Source: a virus. Taken from it: a stretch of DNA of 39,311 nt. The stretch lies in IMG/VR virus record IMGVR_UViG_3300000976_000010. One strand, given 5' to 3'. This document shows positions 24,220 to 32,911 of this stretch, piece by piece. The notes under the pieces were generated by a model, which did no database searches, was not told where the DNA came from, and saw only the letters and a list, made by a program, of their open reading frames with translations. Position 1 is the stretch's first letter. The number at the start of each line of letters is the position of its first letter. The translations under genes and the position numbers were made by a program.

Positions 24220-25803
24220 ATGGCCTTAACACCTTCTGAATATAAAAAATTGAGAATTAATATGGATTATGAAACATCCAAATTGATGACAGGTCGATAT
24301 GAAAACTTGGAAGGTGTTGATATGCCAAAGGGCGCAGATAAACAAGTTCTTGAGAACGGGACAACCAAAAACATACAATTAGAAGACCAACCACGTTCTC
24401 TTTTTTCAAAACATCACCTATTCTATTTAAATAAGTTTGGGGGGAGTGGGGGGAATTACCCAATAACAGAAGAAGACATTGGCAATAATTCCGACCTATT
24501 TAAAAATTTAACCCCCTTGGATTTAATTGATAATCCTAGAGGTGGCCTAATATACAACGCCAATGATTTTTTATACTTAAAGGACATTGATAATATTCCA
24601 CTTAACAGGCTCATAACAGTCAATAAGTTTGCGTACCCCTGTTCGGATAATATATTCGACTCCAACTTCCACCAAGAGCCGCCCATTTCAACAATGCTAA
24701 CCTTTGCAGGTAAAAATTACAACAAACTTAGTGAAATTACTAAGATAGAAATGGGTCTTAGATGGAAGGAATTGACGGCAGGTATGGAACAAATGTCTAC
24801 TATTGGTTCTCAGAGCGGCTTTAATGCAGGTCAGGGTAGAGCAGGGGGCGTAGCTCAAGGAATACTTAATGTAGCTAGTCCTGAATTTGGTAACAATGCC
24901 ATAGCAGGGTCAAACAGGTTAAATTATGATCCCACGCATGATAAGAATAAAGTGTATGGTCAAGTAGACTCAATAGAGAAGACACACATAAGAGATGTGG
25001 GTCTTGATTGGAATCAGTCTATTGCGCTAACATTCAAATATGAAATGCGATCACATAATGGACTTAGTGGAAAACGAGCTTTCATAGATTTGATGTCTAG
25101 TATATTAGTAATGACTACCAACGATGCTACGTTTTGGGGTGGTAGCAGGTTTTGGGTTGGACAAAGACCAAGTAAGATGGCTACAAATTTAAGAATGATG
25201 CAACCTAGTAATTACCAAGAATTTTTAAATAGAGGCCACGCTTCTATGAAAGGTTTTTTGGGGGGGATTAATAGTGGGAGTGCATTGGAGACACTTAAGA
25301 AAGTAGCAGGTAATATACTTAACATGGCCTTTGGTAAACTCCTAGACACCGTTGGTCGTCCTAGTATACCTCTAATGAATTCTCTGCTAACAAACGATCC
25401 TGTAGGGAATTATCATATAACAATCGGCAACCCTTTCAACCCTATAATGAGTGTGGGTAATATGATTAATGATGGTGTTTCTTCTATTCGATTTGGTGAT
25501 GAATTGGGATACGAAGATTTTCCTAATGAAGTGTTTGTTGAGATGAAATTCAAACCTGCTATGGGGAGAGGTAGAGCAGGGGCAGAGGCGTTGTATAATG
25601 GAGGTTCTAGGACATATTGGAAACCGAAGGATGTTTACAAGGGTAAAACCACCTCAATAGGGAGCAGTAGCAATGATCCTGCGCTATTGGGTGATTTTGT
25701 TTCTAATGGAATCAATGGACTTAAGTGGGGCGATTTTTCTAAGGAGGCTGTTCTTAGAAATAGCCAATCAGTTTTTAAATACATTAATAGAGATGGGAGG
25801 TAG
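24220..25803 (+). CDS. Conserved large-phage structural protein, probably baseplate/tail-tube cap-like
   Basis: HITIGNPFNPIMSVGNM...F...LGYEDFP.E..V.M..KPA.GR recalls tail-tube-fold baseplate proteins; Gly/Ala-rich helical insert; TACATA at 24183-24188. The function is an inference. Confidence 0.55.
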   Translation: MALTPSEYKKLRINMDYETSKLMTGRYENLEGVDMPKGADKQVLENGTTKNIQLEDQPRSLFSKHHLFYLNKFGGSGGNYPITEEDIGNNSDLFKNLTPLDLIDNPRGGLIYNANDFLYLKDIDNIPLNRLITVNKFAYPCSDNIFDSNFHQEPPISTMLTFAGKNYNKLSEITKIEMGLRWKELTAGMEQMSTIGSQSGFNAGQGRAGGVAQGILNVASPEFGNNAIAGSNRLNYDPTHDKNKVYGQVDSIEKTHIRDVGLDWNQSIALTFKYEMRSHNGLSGKRAFIDLMSSILVMTTNDATFWGGSRFWVGQRPSKMATNLRMMQPSNYQEFLNRGHASMKGFLGGINSGSALETLKKVAGNILNMAFGKLLDTVGRPSIPLMNSLLTNDPVGNYHITIGNPFNPIMSVGNMINDGVSSIRFGDELGYEDFPNEVFVEMKFKPAMGRGRAGAEALYNGGSRTYWKPKDVYKGKTTSIGSSSNDPALLGDFVSNGINGLKWGDFSKEAVLRNSQSVFKYINRDGR

Positions 25804-25806
25804 ATT

Positions 25807-26118
25807 TTAGTCCTCAAATACTTTGTTGGTGTCATAAAGGTTGTTGGGAAGCGGAGTGTATTTATTATTAAACGATTCAAGTTGGCGTGATATATTAACC
25901 ATCTTCACATGTCTCCTATTAGCCATTGCCTTGCAGGATTCTACTATTTCATCTACTAGGTTAATATCATGCCCCTGTTTTATCGTTACGATTTCATCCT
26001 CGTTTTCAACAATAGCCCTATATTGTTTTCCGAACTTCAATTCTATTGTGACATCATATATTTCGGCCAATTGTCTTATATTTGTAATGCTTATTTTTTT
26101 TAGATCCCGCTTTTTCAT
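25807..26118 (-). CDS. hypothetical protein
   Basis: ORF track 25807..26169; ATG 26118 (MKKRDLKK) has the A-rich leader. Confidence 0.7.
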   Translation of the reverse strand: MKKRDLKKISITNIRQLAEIYDVTIELKFGKQYRAIVENEDEIVTIKQGHDINLVDEIVESCKAMANRRHVKMVNISRQLESFNNKYTPLPNNLYDTNKVFED

Positions 26119-26278
26119 TTTTATTATTTTCTGAATTAATAGTCTCATTAACCCTTGTCTCAAATTCATCCCTTAGTGGTGTCCCCACTTTTCCATAACG
26201 CAAATCTAGCAAATCGTCAAATTTTTCAATTCCTGCTAAGTTTTCGGGTGTCAGATGTGTTGGTTTATTTTTATCCAT
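26054..26278 (-). CDS. Small protein resembling the N-terminus of Bacteroidota HigA/XRE antitoxins, without the HTH
   Basis: FDDLLDLRYGKVGTPLRDEFE motif; no HTH follows. Confidence 0.6.
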   Translation of the reverse strand: MDKNKPTHLTPENLAGIEKFDDLLDLRYGKVGTPLRDEFETRVNETINSENNKNEKAGSKKNKHYKYKTIGRNI

Positions 26279-26316
26279 TGTTTTATTTTATGATTATTAA
26301 TAGACTCATTAAATTC

Positions 26317-26475
26317 CTACAAAAATGTGTCATCCTTTTCCAAAAATTTATTTATAGCCTCTATCTGCTCTTCCAACGCCATGTCATTCAAATCGAGTAC
26401 AGGAATCATATCTTTGCGTAATGTTATATCATGACGCGTGTATAAATTCCTGTTGTATGCAATTAAAAAAGACAT
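26317..26475 (-). CDS. hypothetical protein (52 aa)
   Basis: Read by hand: MSFLIAYNRNLYTRHDITLRKDMIPVLDLNDMALEEQIEAINKFLEKDDTFL; starts inside a cassette-junction-like site. Confidence 0.45.
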   Translation of the reverse strand: MSFLIAYNRNLYTRHDITLRKDMIPVLDLNDMALEEQIEAINKFLEKDDTFL

Positions 26476-26606
26476 ACAACAATAAATATAAGTAATAGTG
26501 GTCGTTTGGAACGCCTAAGCCAATTAACATTCGTTAGGCTATGCAAGCGCACTTGCCGAATGATACTGTTTGAACCACTACTACTCATATTCTTTGCCGT
26601 TAATGG
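26473..26606 (-). other. attC-like / Flavo-1-like structured element
   Basis: Minus strand: CATTAAC-N7-AATATGAGTAGTAGTGGT...ACCACTATTACTTATATT-N4-GTTGTATG. 18-bp stem (26574-26591 with 26485-26502) containing two G-T/G-U pairs and internal hairpins. Confidence 0.7.
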
Positions 26607-26824
26607 TTAGACTGAATACCTTTTTGGATCTTGAATAATTTTGTAAGTAAAACTATCGTGTATAGTAGACCAACCTTCTTTAAGCATAAAATCGCTCAAG
26701 GTGCTAAAACTTTGTTCGTCTGTGATAATGTTATTTTGATGTTCTTGTGGTTTGATTTTTCTTGTTTTTTTATATAAATTATTAGAATCATTAAATTCCT
26801 ATTAAAGCACGTCCTTCCACCAAA

Positions 26825-27058
26825 CTAAGAAACTATTTTGTATTTCTTGTAAAAAAAGTGTACCGCTTCCCTGTCTTCTGTAATATAGTCCATTATATTC
26901 TCCGCATCTACATCGGTTACTTCATTAAATGCTTCTTCTCTTGTAATTCCGTAGTTTCGCGCAATTCCGTCAAGTATTTCATTCATTAGTTTAGTACTTA
27001 GCGACATCAAGAAATTGGCGGTGTCTGCTTTCATTGTATAAGGATTGGTAATTGTCAT
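26825..27058 (-). CDS. hypothetical early protein
   Basis: 77-aa ORF behind a consensus promoter. Confidence 0.8.
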   Translation of the reverse strand: MTITNPYTMKADTANFLMSLSTKLMNEILDGIARNYGITREEAFNEVTDVDAENIMDYITEDREAVHFFYKKYKIVS

Positions 27059-27101
27059 GTCTTATGATTGTTTATAACTAGGCTTATGTGCTTTCGATAC
27101 T

Positions 27102-27133
27102 CAAATATAAGACAATTCCCGATTCCTTGCAAA
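27102..27133 (-). promoter_or_regulatory. Consensus Bacteroidota sigma70 promoter
   Basis: TTTG-N20-TATATTTG on the minus strand. Confidence 0.8.
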
Positions 27134-27174
27134 TATTTAGCTACTTATTTTATTTTAATTGAGACTCGACCAAA

Positions 27175-27405
27175 TCAATAAGTAACAAATTCAAATTCGT
27201 CTTCCAATAAATCTAAGCACCTAATCACCTTTATGCCTCTGTACTTCATATTTTGTTCGTAAAGGTTAATGGACATGCCACCATTATTGGATATTTCTTT
27301 TACAAGATCACACCATGTTTGTGGATGTAATAAAATAAGCCTTGGAATTCTTTTCGATTCCATAAATGCGCTACGCATTCTGTTCTCCAATTTTTATTGT
27401 ATCAT
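27175..27405 (-). pseudogene. small gene with an in-frame TAA at codon 4 (may still be expressed from TTG 27390 or an internal ATG)
   Basis: ATG ATA CAA TAA AAA TTG GAG AAC...; the ATG at 27405 is in frame with the 71-aa ORF. Confidence 0.55.
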
Positions 27406-27417
27406 AGTATTTATTTT

Positions 27418-27675
27418 TTAACACGAAAGGGTTCTATATTCAACATCAAGTTCAATTAGTTTGAGTCTAACACCAAGATTAAAACCTGTAAATTCAGGAG
27501 TACATATAACCAATTCCAATCCGTCAAAATTTATAGACTCATAATTAGCCACTTTTATTAGGAACCTCGCCACCTCTTTTACATCCTCCCCCTTGTCGCA
27601 TTCTTCCTTTTCTAATCGAATTATTTGTTTGTCAAGCTGTTTCTTATTGATTACTAACATAGGCACATAACTCAT
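27418..27675 (-). CDS. hypothetical protein
   Basis: 85-aa ORF in the array. Confidence 0.75.
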   Translation of the reverse strand: MSYVPMLVINKKQLDKQIIRLEKEECDKGEDVKEVARFLIKVANYESINFDGLELVICTPEFTGFNLGVRLKLIELDVEYRTLSC

Positions 27676-27739
27676 ACTTTAGTCTTTTTTTTAATAACAG
27701 TCATTAATCAATACTCGCTGTCGTTTATTATAAAATATT

Positions 27740-28222
27740 CTAAATTTCTTCACCTCGTCCATCAAAAATTACGATCATAGAATCGTGCATACCGCTATTT
27801 TTTACCAAAGGCATCCCAATGGGCGGAATTCTATCCCAAAGATGCCAATTAACCGCTTCGTCTTTGCTATTGATGCCTATAAATTTAACTCTACCCCTTA
27901 AAAATCTTATGTCTGACGAATTGGGTAATATATGCTCATGGAATAATAATGTAGAAGTGCTAACAGGAATTAACATAACACAAAGTCTACCCTTTTTTGA
28001 TTCCTCAATTGCCTTTTTAACAAAAAGTTCCTTAAGTTTCCTTCTATATGGAGGATTGATAAAGTTTCTTTCTTTCCAATCAATTTTTAGACCATCCCAA
28101 TCATTTATATTGTGCATGTATGGGCAAGGGTCAAAATTAAAATTGAATTCGTTATTGAGCTGTTGCAATAATTGGGGGGGGGTAGCCCAATCATCTCTGT
28201 GATCCAAGTTTCTGTTTTTCAT
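27740..28222 (-). CDS. Phage Dam-family DNA N6-adenine methyltransferase
   Basis: DDWATP, FNFDPCP, DGLKIDW, FINPPY (motif IV), VMLIP, IRFLRGRVKF. Confidence 0.9.
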   Translation of the reverse strand: MKNRNLDHRDDWATPPQLLQQLNNEFNFNFDPCPYMHNINDWDGLKIDWKERNFINPPYRRKLKELFVKKAIEESKKGRLCVMLIPVSTSTLLFHEHILPNSSDIRFLRGRVKFIGINSKDEAVNWHLWDRIPPIGMPLVKNSGMHDSMIVIFDGRGEEI

Positions 28223-28282
28223 AATTATTTGTTTATTTCGTGACTTTAGTCTTTCAATTTTACGTACCCAAAATGCTAAACG

Positions 28283-28657
28283 TTAGTACTCATAGTCAAC
28301 ACCAAGCAATATTATATCTACAGATTCAGAGTAGTACCCGTTGCTTTCGCCAAACCATCTAATATCCACATAGCCTTTAATTGTTGCGAATTTATAATAA
28401 GTCCAAGTACAAGAACCATAGTCTTCCGCCTCTTTACTTCTTTGAATATCTTCTTTTGAAGTTGGTTCGTAATTTGAAACTTCTTCGGCTTTTAATATTG
28501 GGCTTCCAACCAAATACTGTAAATCGCCAACTATATCTTCAATGGTCACGCTTTCGCAGCAATATTGTCCGTGATACATTTTATATTTATTTCCATCTTC
28601 GCAAGCAAATATTATATAGTCATTATCACTGTTTCTACTTTGGTAAGTTTTTACCAA
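28283..28657 (-). CDS. Conserved phage hypothetical protein (CCES...GESNGYYSE family) with a damaged 5' end
   Basis: [56 protein letters not shown]. No proper ATG; upstream frames appear shifted. Confidence 0.7.
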
Positions 28658-28711
28658 TCAACCCTTTTAATCTTTACAACTTATTTAATATTTTAATAGC
28701 GTTATAGCCAA

Positions 28712-29002
28712 TTAAATATATTCTTCAATTTCAAAGTCATCATTCACTTTAGCTATATCTTTGCAGATTTGCTCAAATGTCTTACTGTTCAAATCATCAA
28801 GTTGCTCTTTTGTAGTTATGTAAATAAATCCGTCAAGTCCTTCAAGACTATCGCATTTGGTAGGTTTATTTCCGCATACCGTTAAGCAGCTTAATTCAAG
28901 TCCATTTTTTAATGTGTAATTGTTTTGTACATCATCCCAATCAGGTCTGTTTGTTGTTTTTTCAAACCCGTAACTTTCAATAATTTCTAATGTTAAATCC
29001 AT
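28712..29002 (-). CDS. hypothetical protein
   Basis: 96-aa ORF; LT.EI...YGF start typical of small phage proteins. Confidence 0.8.
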   Translation of the reverse strand: MDLTLEIIESYGFEKTTNRPDWDDVQNNYTLKNGLELSCLTVCGNKPTKCDSLEGLDGFIYITTKEQLDDLNSKTFEQICKDIAKVNDDFEIEEYI

Positions 29003-29067
29003 AATTCGTTTTTCTGTTTAATAAAAGGATTTATAATATTGTAATGACTTAATATCTCAGAATGGGG

Positions 29068-29331
29068 TTACTCTTCATGCTCTTTTAACGCTTCCTCTAC
29101 CTTGGCTAACTCCTCCTTCATTTTGTCACGTTGGGTTATATTAAGTGCTGTTAAAATAACTATAAATTCTCTTTCTTTAAGGAATTCATTATAAGTATTG
29201 AATAACCCCGTATCCTTCCAATCATTAATTCCTTCAAGTTGATAATCGAATTCAATTGCCATGCTTTCGTGGTGATCTACACACTTCTTTATACTATCCC
29301 TCTTAGCTGTTAAATATTGCTTTTGGTTCAT
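29068..29331 (-). CDS. hypothetical coiled-coil protein
   Basis: 87-aa ORF in the array. Confidence 0.75.
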   Translation of the reverse strand: MNQKQYLTAKRDSIKKCVDHHESMAIEFDYQLEGINDWKDTGLFNTYNEFLKEREFIVILTALNITQRDKMKEELAKVEEALKEHEE

Positions 29332-29379
29332 AAGTTGAATTGGTTTTAAAATGTAATTTTATAAAAGTAATAAATAATA

Positions 29380-29586
29380 CTACCTGTATCGTTTATAAAC
29401 TTCATTATATACAGCATCGGCAATTCTCATAGCATCAACTGTATCGTCTAACATACCTTCTGCCATTTCTTCACATTCTTTTAAGGTCTTGTAAGGTTCA
29501 TTAATACACCATTTTCTCCAAAAAAAAGGCTCGATGTTATTTTTAAACCTTATCTGCAAGTACCATCTTTGTTGTTCGTTTTTCAT
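29380..29586 (-). CDS. hypothetical protein
   Basis: 68-aa ORF in the array. Confidence 0.7.
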   Translation of the reverse strand: MKNEQQRWYLQIRFKNNIEPFFWRKWCINEPYKTLKECEEMAEGMLDDTVDAMRIADAVYNEVYKRYR

Positions 29587-29594
29587 AATCCGTA

Positions 29595-29900
29595 TTATTT
29601 TCCACTGTTATACTTAGCGTTAGCAACAGCCCAATTTATATTAAATACATAATCATTATACTCTTTATGTCTTTGCCTTAAATGGGATAAACAACTACTG
29701 CTTTTGCTTATTATTTCACTAGGAGCATCGTTATCAATCAACCAATTTAAGTGCTCATTTTCCCTTTCGGCCATTTCCAAAAGTCTAGATATTAGATGTT
29801 GTTTCATCTGTTCTTTAAATGAAAGGCAGTTGCTAACACTATCTATAGCACATTTCTTTTCCTTCCCCCCTTCACCAAATATTCTTTTAATACAAGTCAC
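29595..29900 (-). CDS. hypothetical protein spanning two cassette-junction-like sites
   Basis: 101-aa ORF; AIDSVSNC and WAVAN are encoded by an inverted-repeat pair. Confidence 0.6.
   Translation of the reverse strand: MTCIKRIFGEGGKEKKCAIDSVSNCLSFKEQMKQHLISRLLEMAERENEHLNWLIDNDAPSEIISKSSSCLSHLRQRHKEYNDYVFNINWAVANAKYNSGK
29619..29837. repeat. 219-bp cassette-like segment bounded by a 12/13 inverted repeat
   Basis: GTTAGCAACAGCC (29619-29631) and GGCAGTTGCTAAC (29825-29837). Confidence 0.75.
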
Positions 29901-30127
29901 TTGTTTAAGTTTTGTTTGTTCTTAAATACATACAGCAGATGAAAATGTGTATATTGCATAGCCTATCAACATAAGCAGCATACACAATGCGTTATACCCT
30001 GTTTTGGTGCTTCCTAGCATTCGCAACAAGGTAAAAATAGCACTAAAAGACATCGTTGACTGCAATTCCCCTAGCTTTTAAATGTACTTATTCTATTCAT
30101 CTGTCACTTTTATATCTCGGCATACAC

Positions 30128-30592
30128 CTACTTCAATTGGCTACACACTTTTTTAAATCTTGAAGAATAGTTTTCTACTATCTTTGAAATATGTCCTGAA
30201 ATGTAAAAGTCATAAACCTGAGAATCAAACAGGGCTTGGGCTTGTAAGTTGTTTGTGCCTGTAAAAACATATCCATGCGAACACAACAATTTTTTGGTGT
30301 ACCCAAAGCTTCTTCGTGCAAATTTGCTTCTAACATAATTGTACTTATCTTCTTCCGATGACGGAACTTCTTCATCCCAACTCAAAACAATATCTTCCCA
30401 AGCATCATATCCATTATCCACACCATCAAAGCAGGCGGTCGGAGGAATCCCTTTTTCCTCCATAAATTTTATTAAATCAATGGGATTCACATCAAGTATG
30501 CTAATTGTTCTTGTAGCAGAGCGCGTTTTAGGAGCAGCGTTCTTTAGTATTTTAAATACTTCATCAAATGCGGCTTTAATTAAATTTTCCAT
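30128..30592 (-). CDS. hypothetical protein
   Basis: 154-aa ORF in the array. Confidence 0.8.
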   Translation of the reverse strand: MENLIKAAFDEVFKILKNAAPKTRSATRTISILDVNPIDLIKFMEEKGIPPTACFDGVDNGYDAWEDIVLSWDEEVPSSEEDKYNYVRSKFARRSFGYTKKLLCSHGYVFTGTNNLQAQALFDSQVYDFYISGHISKIVENYSSRFKKVCSQLK

Positions 30593-30631
30593 GTTTATCT
30601 TTGTGTTTATTGGTTATTGGGTAATCATTAA

Positions 30632-30849
30632 TTAAATATCGGTTAAAATTTCAATGTTTTTGCAGTAGTACGGATTTAAAAGAGTGCTAAATGATAAAAC
30701 GGCCTCGTCTCTCTCTTTATTTTTGTAAATCATTTTTCCCTAAACGAATCATTTGTTATTTCGTCAGCCCTCATGATTAGCCCATTGGCTTTGATGAAAT
30801 ATCCTATTTGTACCTTAGCAGCGAAACGTATTGCATTTAAATTAATCAT
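30632..30849 (-). pseudogene. small gene split by a 1-nt deletion (or two ATGA-coupled peptides)
   Basis: MINLNAIRF...NDSFR then the -1 frame GKMIYKNKERDEAV...ILTDI*; 218 nt, one short of 73 codons. Confidence 0.5.
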
Positions 30850-30893
30850 AGTGCGTTAAATTTAGATTTTGTATAGATATTTTATTCGATAGT

Positions 30894-30925
30894 ACAATAT
30901 ACAACCATTTGCTCACTTATGCAAA
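30894..30925 (-). promoter_or_regulatory. Bacteroidota-type promoter variant
   Basis: TTTG-N20-TATATTGT. Confidence 0.6.
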
Positions 30926-31035
30926 TTATTAAAGGGAAATTTAAAACGCTAGGATTAATTTAAAAATAATACAGGATGAAAAATATAATACACAAATTTT
31001 ACCACAATTATGTATTTTACAAATATTCGGTCTAA

Positions 31036-32808: not shown

Positions 32809-32842
32809 GACGTTTGCTTTTGTTAATAATTATATGGTGTAA

Positions 32843-32894
32843 ATATACAAAAATAGCTCGACAATTAAAAATATGTCGAGCTATTTTTGTATAT
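32843..32894. terminator. 21-bp perfect inverted repeat (terminator or operator)
   Basis: ATATACAAAAATAGCTCGACA / TGTCGAGCTATTTTTGTATAT, 10-nt loop, intergenic. Confidence 0.75.
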
Positions 32895-32911
32895 AATTTT
32901 AAACACAGTTT

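Follow-up and report, generated by a model that had tools for sequence, protein, structure and literature searches.

A family of attC-like hairpin sites shared by an early-gene block of a viral contig and recombinase-adjoining arrays of Flavobacteriaceae

On the minus strand of the IMG/VR virus record IMGVR_UViG_3300000976_000010, a stretch of 39,311 nucleotides (nt) that was analyzed as a whole and is referred to here as the window, we observed one intact hairpin and a series of short sequence boxes that belong to a family of integron-like attC sites. The best explanation of the region from 26440 to 30070 taken as a whole, and one that we consider probable, is an early-gene block with one intact and at least four decayed attC-type sites, derived from gene cassettes and by now largely fossil. 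Members of the same family form arrays beside a tyrosine recombinase gene in chromosomes of Flavobacteriaceae, and one family of sites ties these arrays to the small early genes of many marine phages. Integrons have been regarded as nearly absent from the Bacteroidota (PMC9024848), and phage-borne attC clusters are rare, with a reported 21 in 10,705 genomes (PMC9892861). Our search of the literature found no report linking integrons to the flavobacterial genera concerned.

A hairpin family bounded by gene-specific boxes

The family was reached through the relatives of a DUF7448 gene in the window. In their contigs, a hairpin lies after every small gene, with ...TAATGCTAAC and GTTAGCATTA... at its ends (for example at 9000-10800 of contig L003), and a scan for stems bounded by AAC and GTT gave about 30 strong cases of a common plan. 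Each element is a hairpin of roughly 70-210 nt. Its left half consists of a 13-nt left box, wATTgnnnnYAAC, followed by a G with a spacer and by an arm containing TATG. The two halves are joined by a loop whose length is about 7, 30 or 70 nt and which often contains AAACTTAAA. In the right half, an arm containing TATA is followed by a shorter spacer, a T, and a 13-nt right box, GTTRnnnnnnGTw. The bounding YAACG...TGTTR is invariant, and the left spacer exceeds the right one by 2-4 nt. We found compensatory double changes in 11 of the 13 predicted stem pairs, along with one conserved G-T stem pair. The family thus has the classical attC architecture: the palindrome is imperfect, its cores are AAC and GTT, and one arm has additional bases. 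The loops carry AAACTTAAA and then an ATG, and many open reading frames (ORFs) start within the long loops. ORFs usually end on a TAA inside YTAAC, which agrees with an earlier reading of this DNA (the original prediction) in which stop codons overlapped the AAC ends. From 20 IMG/VR elements, none of them from the window, we built a covariance model, R1; position weight matrices for the left and right boxes were likewise built from elements of other contigs only.

The boxes are specific to the gene that they enclose. In phage contigs, 24 pairs of neighboring elements were compared. The right box ahead of a gene agrees with the reverse complement of the left box behind that gene at an average of 7.7 of the 10 variable positions, and 18 of the 24 pairs reach 8 or more. 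The corresponding values for the two boxes of a single hairpin and for random pairs are 4.2 and 3.6, respectively, and only 0.9% of the random pairs reach 8. In three bacterial arrays the match across the gene is 6-9 of 10, and 7 or more in all but one case. Such complementarity across a gene is the signature of an integron cassette, here widened from 7 to 13 nt. The original prediction had described end-to-end complementarity in two places in the window, and both withstand comparison: GTTAGCAACTGCC (29837-29825) and GGCTGTTGCTAAC (29631-29619) agree at 9 of 10 variable positions, and GTTGTATG at 26480 and CATACAAC at 26452 at 7 of 10, with a perfect core of 8 base pairs (bp). The pattern extends to further cassettes, as cassette-specific GTT... 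and ...AAC boxes bracket each gene in the relatives.

The ends of homology coincide with these boxes. Relatives of the DUF7448 gene with 83-87% nucleotide identity occur in eight otherwise unrelated IMG/VR contigs, over positions 28692-28280 of the window only. Similarity between the DUF7448 cassettes stops immediately after the left-box AAC, the next bases being TGTG, GCTT, GATT and GGTT in four contigs. In the window, homology ends after GTACTAAC at 28282, and in the comparison with L001-L003 within 2 nt past that AAC; in L001-L003 themselves it ends directly after their own AAC. On the upstream side, similarity in L002, L003 and L006 starts right after the AAC that precedes the hairpin. Homology between phages therefore breaks right at AAC|G, in keeping with the expectation that breakpoints would fall at the sites.

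The sites and associated genes of the window, all on the minus strand, are as follows.

26468-26611: intact hairpin element; R1 score 50.3 bits, E-value (E) 1.7e-9, site ends 26605/26491
26611-26599: left box of the intact element, TCTAACCATTAAC
26480-26468: right box of the intact element, GTTGTATGTCTTT
26464-26452: left-box-like AATTGCATACAAC, complementary to the right box that ends 3 nt before it; weak, 5.0 bits
27740-28222: gene for a Dam-type N6-adenine DNA methyltransferase (PF05869, 2.2e-18; phrog_111)
28281-28263: putative right-box remnant GTTTAGCATTTTGGGTACG, abutting the preceding AAC, its hairpin apparently lost, and leading into the Dam gene
28294-28282: left box TATGAGTACTAAC, its TAA serving as stop codon of the DUF7448 gene; 8.3 bits
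28283-28657: DUF7448 gene (Pfam PF24240, 3.5e-24; phrog_2650)
28283-28700: cassette of the DUF7448 gene, with AAC|G at both bounds
28713-28701: left box AATTGGCTATAAC, overlapping the TAA stop codon of ORF 28712-29002; 15.4 bits, the best left box in the window
29631-29619: left box GGCTGTTGCTAAC, closing the cassette of the 70-codon ORF; 8.8 bits
29595-29807: 70-codon ORF of this boxed cassette, likely ATG at 29807, reading through the left box; no family match
29825-29850: right-arm remnant TGCTATAGATAGT and right box GTTAGCAACTGCC (29837-29825, 12.5 bits), opening the same cassette
29931-30003: decayed element; left box AACAGGGTATAAC, right box mutated to TTCATCTGCTGTA, stem weakened
30027-30015: right half-site GTTGCGAATGCTA; weak, no score support
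30067-30055: left-box-like AATTGCAGTCAAC, 60 nt past the stop codon of ORF 30128-30592; 12.6 bits, second best in the window

In the intact element, the stem measures about 22 bp and has G-T pairs on the minus strand only, and the 69-nt loop contains two small hairpins. An inverted repeat within the element, 26476-26600, is one of two long ones observed. The hairpin folds better on the minus strand than on the plus strand, both as RNA (z scores of -5.8 and -1.7, respectively) and as DNA (-2.8 and -1.25). The adjoining AATTGCATACAAC possibly represents a cassette emptied of its gene, and the 41-codon ORF at 26463-26588 on the minus strand, inside the hairpin element, is probably spurious and no gene. 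The remaining copies are degenerate, as had been noted, with R1 matches of E 0.42 or worse.

Around the DUF7448 gene, the left box at 28713-28701 is identical at 12 of 13 positions to boxes in L008 and L009, and the hairpin and right box expected after it are absent. The remnant GTTTAGCATTTTGGGTACG is similar to GTTAGCATTAGTACGG, found at the opening of cassettes in L002, L003 and L006, and a hairpin-less junction, AAC-TGT-GTTAGC, like that at 28282/28281 also occurs in L001. Around the 70-codon gene, 29825-29850 belongs to an inverted repeat, I2 (26 nt, 81% complementary), and 29825-29960 gives the R1 match of E 0.42. The annotated ORF spans 29595-29900, with 29807 probably being its true start. 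After left box GGCTGTTGCTAAC comes a left-arm remnant and then TACGGATTATG, a conserved cassette leader with the ATG of ORF 29380-29586, which is also present in Tenacibaculum jumbo phage PTm1 at 76% identity. Over 91 nt, the decayed element at 30003-29931 is 81.7% identical to a site in Synechococcus phage S-CBS2 that matches R1 at E 7.3e-8, retains GTTACCTGCTGTA and adjoins a dcm methylase gene; the fold of the window copy is lost (z of +1.0). The half-site GTTGCGAATGCTA falls in a 33-nt stretch that is missing from the S-CBS2 homologue.

All ten half-site strings quoted in the original prediction are present on the minus strand where it had placed them, and about eight have support from models trained on other sequences; those at 26460 (box 26452-26464) and 30041 (box 30015-30027) are weak. 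Within the region, left-box matches of 8 bits or more number five versus 1.15 in shuffles (P = 0.007), and the plus strand has none. The looser motifs behind the prediction fared differently. YAAC (35 versus 32.1 expected from shuffles), GTTR (36 versus 32.1) and the spaced YAAC-N6/7-DTAT (2 versus 1.6) are no commoner than chance, and most copies of YAACG lie inside ORFs. For TAACG, enrichment is confined to the coding strand (9 versus 3.7, P about 0.008), the other strand having a single copy. A verdict of chance drawn from the motif counts against shuffles was set aside after homologous elements turned up. The likeness to the Rfam family Flavo-1 suggested in the original prediction did not hold, in that the window, the phage arrays and the bacterial arrays contain no match to it in Rfam 15, even at E up to 10. 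Searching the same three sets with Rfam families at gathering and permissive thresholds gave nothing but spurious microRNA-like hairpin matches.

Occurrence in phages and beside a bacterial recombinase

A strict 22-base pattern, which recovers about 13% of known copies and for which we estimate about 13 chance matches, occurs at 120 or more loci in genomes, almost all of Bacteroidota and mainly of Flavobacteriaceae, and at least 120 times in IMG/VR. Searching five whole Flavobacteriaceae genomes with R1 gave 17-81 matches each. The genome with 81 matches (G009) contains a dense array: among the matches listed, about 50 span 469410-538035, or 70 kb, and a recombinase gene (467755-468522) ends 0.9 kb ahead of the start of the array. 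The layout of an array beside a recombinase recurs at four more places (C9 of G009, C9 and C13 of G010, and C13 of G011), and homologues of the array recombinase are found in at least 15 bacterial loci chosen by the DNA pattern alone. A tyrosine recombinase of the kind that the original prediction had invoked therefore does co-occur with the elements, beside their arrays in Flavobacteriaceae chromosomes.

The array recombinase passes NF040815, a model for XerA and integron integrases, at 223 bits. Against the IntI model TIGR02249 it scores 192-222 bits, where the cut-off is 265, and the match is split around model positions 181-239. It aligns end to end and gap-free with the XerA structures 5hxy and 4a8e. 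Because it fails the IntI model and aligns with XerA without gaps, the array recombinase is not a canonical IntI.

Among cultured phages, the virulent Polaribacter phage P12002L has 12 R1 matches at E 1.5e-4 or better, in its early/methylase region. In S-CBS2 (L303), R1-type elements at 1528-1599 and 2578-2654, both on the minus strand, bracket gp006 beside the dcm methylase gene, and these two elements in a cyanophage extend the family beyond phages of Bacteroidota. Homologues of the array recombinase with 36-50% identity are also encoded on seven element-bearing contigs filed as viral (L202, L207, L209, L277, L194, L232 and L240), one of which is 246 kb long; these contigs are either enzyme-carrying phages or bacterial DNA filed as viral.

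The orientation of the elements relative to genes is opposite in the two settings. In bacterial arrays, 17 flanking ORFs lie on the same strand as the model and 186 on the opposite one, and in viral contigs the corresponding numbers are 119 and 8. That the folding strand stays constant while the gene orientation flips favors a role at the DNA level over a purely RNA-level one. Since the bacterial ORFs lie opposite to the model strand, the folding strand is the bottom strand, as in classical integrons.

Setting and probable origin of the early-gene block

In the window, large plus-strand genes reach 25803, and small minus-strand ORFs form a block from 22929 to about 37300, most of them with no family match. 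The DUF7448 and Dam methyltransferase genes are the recognizable ones between 26440 and 30070. In a 368-kb relative, L053, synteny at 65-71% nucleotide identity runs to position 25800 of the window and then disappears. The break falls exactly at the stop codon of the gene for a 527-residue protein (25800 in the window, 11590 in L053), and the small-gene block that follows is wholly different from that of the window; with its block replaced in the relative, the region of the elements is hyperplastic. Upstream, the relative carries genes for a response regulator and a PAS/HATPase histidine kinase that are absent from the window.

Several features of the surroundings stand apart from the sites themselves. 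Within the first 20 codons of the Dam methyltransferase ORF, at about 28165-28190 on the minus strand, there is a run of about nine C, possibly a slippage-prone tract or a weak point of sequencing. A 16-nt perfect inverted repeat, AATTGTCTTATATTTG, is present at 26069-26084 on the plus strand and at 27102-27117 on the minus strand, 1 kb apart, and includes TATATTTG, which fits the Bacteroidota -7 promoter box TAnnTTTG. The two copies may be one early promoter present twice and facing, which would imply plus-strand transcription over 26085-26420. Direct repeats at 26135-26151, 26296-26312 and 26781-26798 (ATTAATAGWCTCATTAA on the plus strand, AGGAATTTAATGAKTCTA on the minus strand) form a common leader and start region for three small minus-strand ORFs. 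Between two minus-strand ORFs, 32831-32910 forms a near-perfect palindrome whose stem measures about 22 bp; it was rejected as a family member, being an ordinary palindrome with no AAC core and with R1 matches of only E 0.021 and 0.35 on the two strands, and it is probably a bidirectional, terminator-like hairpin. No transfer RNA or transfer-messenger RNA was found in the window, and a pattern search of IMG/VR gave no relatives of the large neighboring proteins (the 527-residue protein and an AAA ATPase). Searching cultured phages with the DUF7448 protein yielded distant homologues only, in Bacillus, Pseudomonas and other phages, which are uninformative on context.

In this family, a cassette is a gene flanked by a right and a left box that complement each other and are specific to it. 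We propose that cassettes would be exchanged when the XerA-like tyrosine recombinase encoded beside the Flavobacteriaceae arrays cuts the folding strand at AA|C within the left box. The cut is placed at AA|C on the basis of the layout, the breakpoints and analogy with the classical bottom strand, and we infer that phages would draw on the enzyme of the host during infection. Phage cassettes are flipped, such that the hairpin heads the gene, often holding its start, and the cassette ends on the stop TAA. With the hairpin at the head and TAA at the end, translation starts within loops are accounted for without the chimeric proteins that the original prediction had foreseen: given an AA|C crossover, the hairpin would move with the downstream gene and loop starts would remain attached to the ORFs they belong to. 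Two genes of the window, that of DUF7448 and the 70-codon one (29807-29595), would have come into the phage as cassettes, as would, probably, the Dam gene, whose 3' end has no recognizable box. Later deletion of most hairpins would have left the array largely fossil. What stands of the predicted integron-like cassette system is thus the site family, the logic of its boxes, the breakpoints, the recombinase-adjoining arrays of Flavobacteriaceae and the flip in orientation. Ongoing shuffling in the window phage is not supported: a single site is intact, hairpins are gone from the rest, and the closest relative has an altogether different block that lacks the element.

A number of observations weigh against a cassette origin and deserve to be set out together. 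The window contains only one intact site, and its right boxes are not enriched (2 versus 0.85 in shuffles). No R1 element was found in the equivalent block of the 368-kb relative or in PTm1. The window has no homologue of the array recombinase, which agrees with the earlier finding of no integrase there, and a search for tyrosine recombinases (Pfam PF00589) in the complete P12002L genome and eight other viral records found none. As judged from its sequence, the array recombinase is without the IntI insertion, and its action on folded sites is accordingly putative. One of the P12002L sites, P12002L_attC1, gave no recombinants with IntI1 (PMC9892861). Finally, translation starts in loops and the sense orientation in phages would also fit an RNA role.

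This last alternative holds that in phages the elements act as structured spacers of polycistronic early transcripts, presenting the start of the following gene in a loop, stabilizing or processing the messenger RNA (mRNA) or pairing the 5' end of each gene unit with its 3' end, with their likeness to recombination sites reflecting ancestry. It would explain why 119 of the 127 viral flanks that could be decided have the element on the coding strand, why G-U pairs improve the sense fold (z of -5.8 against -1.7), why loops carry AAACTTAAA and ATG with many ORF starts, and why neither the window nor the nine viral records yielded a recombinase. We nevertheless consider it unlikely as a full explanation. 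The bacterial folding strand is antisense to the genes (186 to 17), and the asymmetry there is no feature of mRNA; gene-specific box pairs and exact AAC|G breakpoints point to exchange of DNA; and several copies in the window have lost their hairpins while their genes are intact, which indicates that expression does not require the hairpin. Given the sense orientation in phages, an RNA role may come on top of the one in DNA exchange.

Still less probable is homologous or microhomology recombination between conserved promoter-terminator stem-loops of the promoter-early stem-loop (PeSL) type, with no site-specific recombinase involved. Shuffling of this type is documented (PMC2839356, PMC4122927), and it would fit both the whole replacement of the block between relatives and the repeated hairpin loss that leaves AAC-GTT junctions. 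However, a search of 25500-31000 gave no conserved repeat common to its intergenic regions, and the stems vary and co-vary, so that they offer little homology. Homologous exchange also predicts neither gene-specific complementary boxes nor arrays beside a dedicated recombinase. We give hardly any weight to the reading that the eye picked out fortuitous matches of a short AT-rich motif. The motif counts at shuffle frequency and the two of ten sites without independent support would suit it, but it has to contend with an independent model match at E 1.7e-9, the enrichment of left boxes, the box pair matching at 9 of 10 positions and homology to model-positive elements elsewhere, which refute it for most sites.

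If a cassette origin is accepted, the DUF7448 gene and the gene at 29807 can be annotated as horizontally acquired modules of the window. Were the sites active, they would explain in concrete terms how phage accessory genes, anti-restriction methyltransferases among them, turn over, and would provide a second, IntI-independent way to structure-specific cassette recombination. A broader picture, which we regard as possible although doubtful, is that virulent phages of Bacteroidota, jumbo phages among them, and at least one cyanophage share the Xer-like cassette system of their hosts and carry its cassettes inverted, with the folded site ahead of the gene and providing its translation start. In infected cells they would exchange early genes, methyltransferases for instance, by means of the recombinase of the host, in effect a gene market between bacterium and phage that a non-IntI recombinase operates.

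Comparison with known systems

The phage side of the family resembles the clusters of attC sites lacking an integrase (CALINs) of virulent phages, which likewise have hairpin sites of the RYYYAAC/GTTRRRY type between small accessory genes, often methyltransferases, and no integrase. Qi et al. (2023, PMC9892861) reported a CALIN with two sites in P12002L, of which P12002L_attC1 corresponds to our R1 match at 30065-29999 of that genome and is typical of the family. For the other, attC2, IntI1-mediated recombination at GTTAGGC was reported (PMC9892861); on the gene strand this site is the left box AATTGTGCCTAAC, which closes a methylase cassette opened by GTTAGGCAC. The family differs from the CALINs of Qi et al. 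in that its model finds 12 sites in P12002L rather than two, its boxes are 13 nt long, and its elements, all in the sense orientation, can reach considerable length, their stems measuring about 18 bp or more. A CALIN is defined by at least two nearby attC sites and no integrase; the window has one intact site plus decayed ones within 3.6 kb and, unlike a clean CALIN, consists of one intact copy and relics.

The PeSLs of T4-type phages (Arbiol et al. 2010, PMC2839356; Comeau et al. 2014, PMC4122927), for which modular shuffling has been proposed, are similar in being stem-loops that flank small genes in hyperplastic phage regions. They are conserved promoter-terminator sequences acting by homology, whereas the stems described here vary and co-vary, the boxes are gene-specific, and a recombinase-linked chromosomal form exists. 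The rAID-1 arrays of Bacteroidales (Ross et al. 2019, bioRxiv 10.1101/471110) place a gene for a XerD-family tyrosine recombinase 5' of co-directional genes separated by intergenic repeats "reminiscent of integrons". The recombinase-plus-array layout in Flavobacteriaceae is similar, a likeness that concerns the layout. The rAID-1 arrays were described in gut Bacteroidales chromosomes with immunity genes and not in phages, and the gene orientation in our phage arrays is the opposite one.

The broadest likeness is to classical and sedentary integrons, with which the family shares the folded imperfect palindrome, the AAC/GTT cores and the asymmetry in arm length. As in classical integrons, the first bases of a cassette complement its own inverse core, the stop codon often lies in the core, and arrays stand beside a tyrosine recombinase gene. 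The recombinase differs from theirs in having no IntI-specific segment, and the boxes are 13 rather than 7 nt long. In further contrast to classical integrons, the recombinase gene is co-directional with the cassettes in bacterial arrays, and the phage cassettes are inverted and recombinase-free. Phage CALINs (PMC9892861) and rAID-1 arrays (bioRxiv 10.1101/471110) have already been published; what appears to be new is the site family that the phage and chromosomal arrays share, its breadth in phages and the flip in gene orientation between the two.

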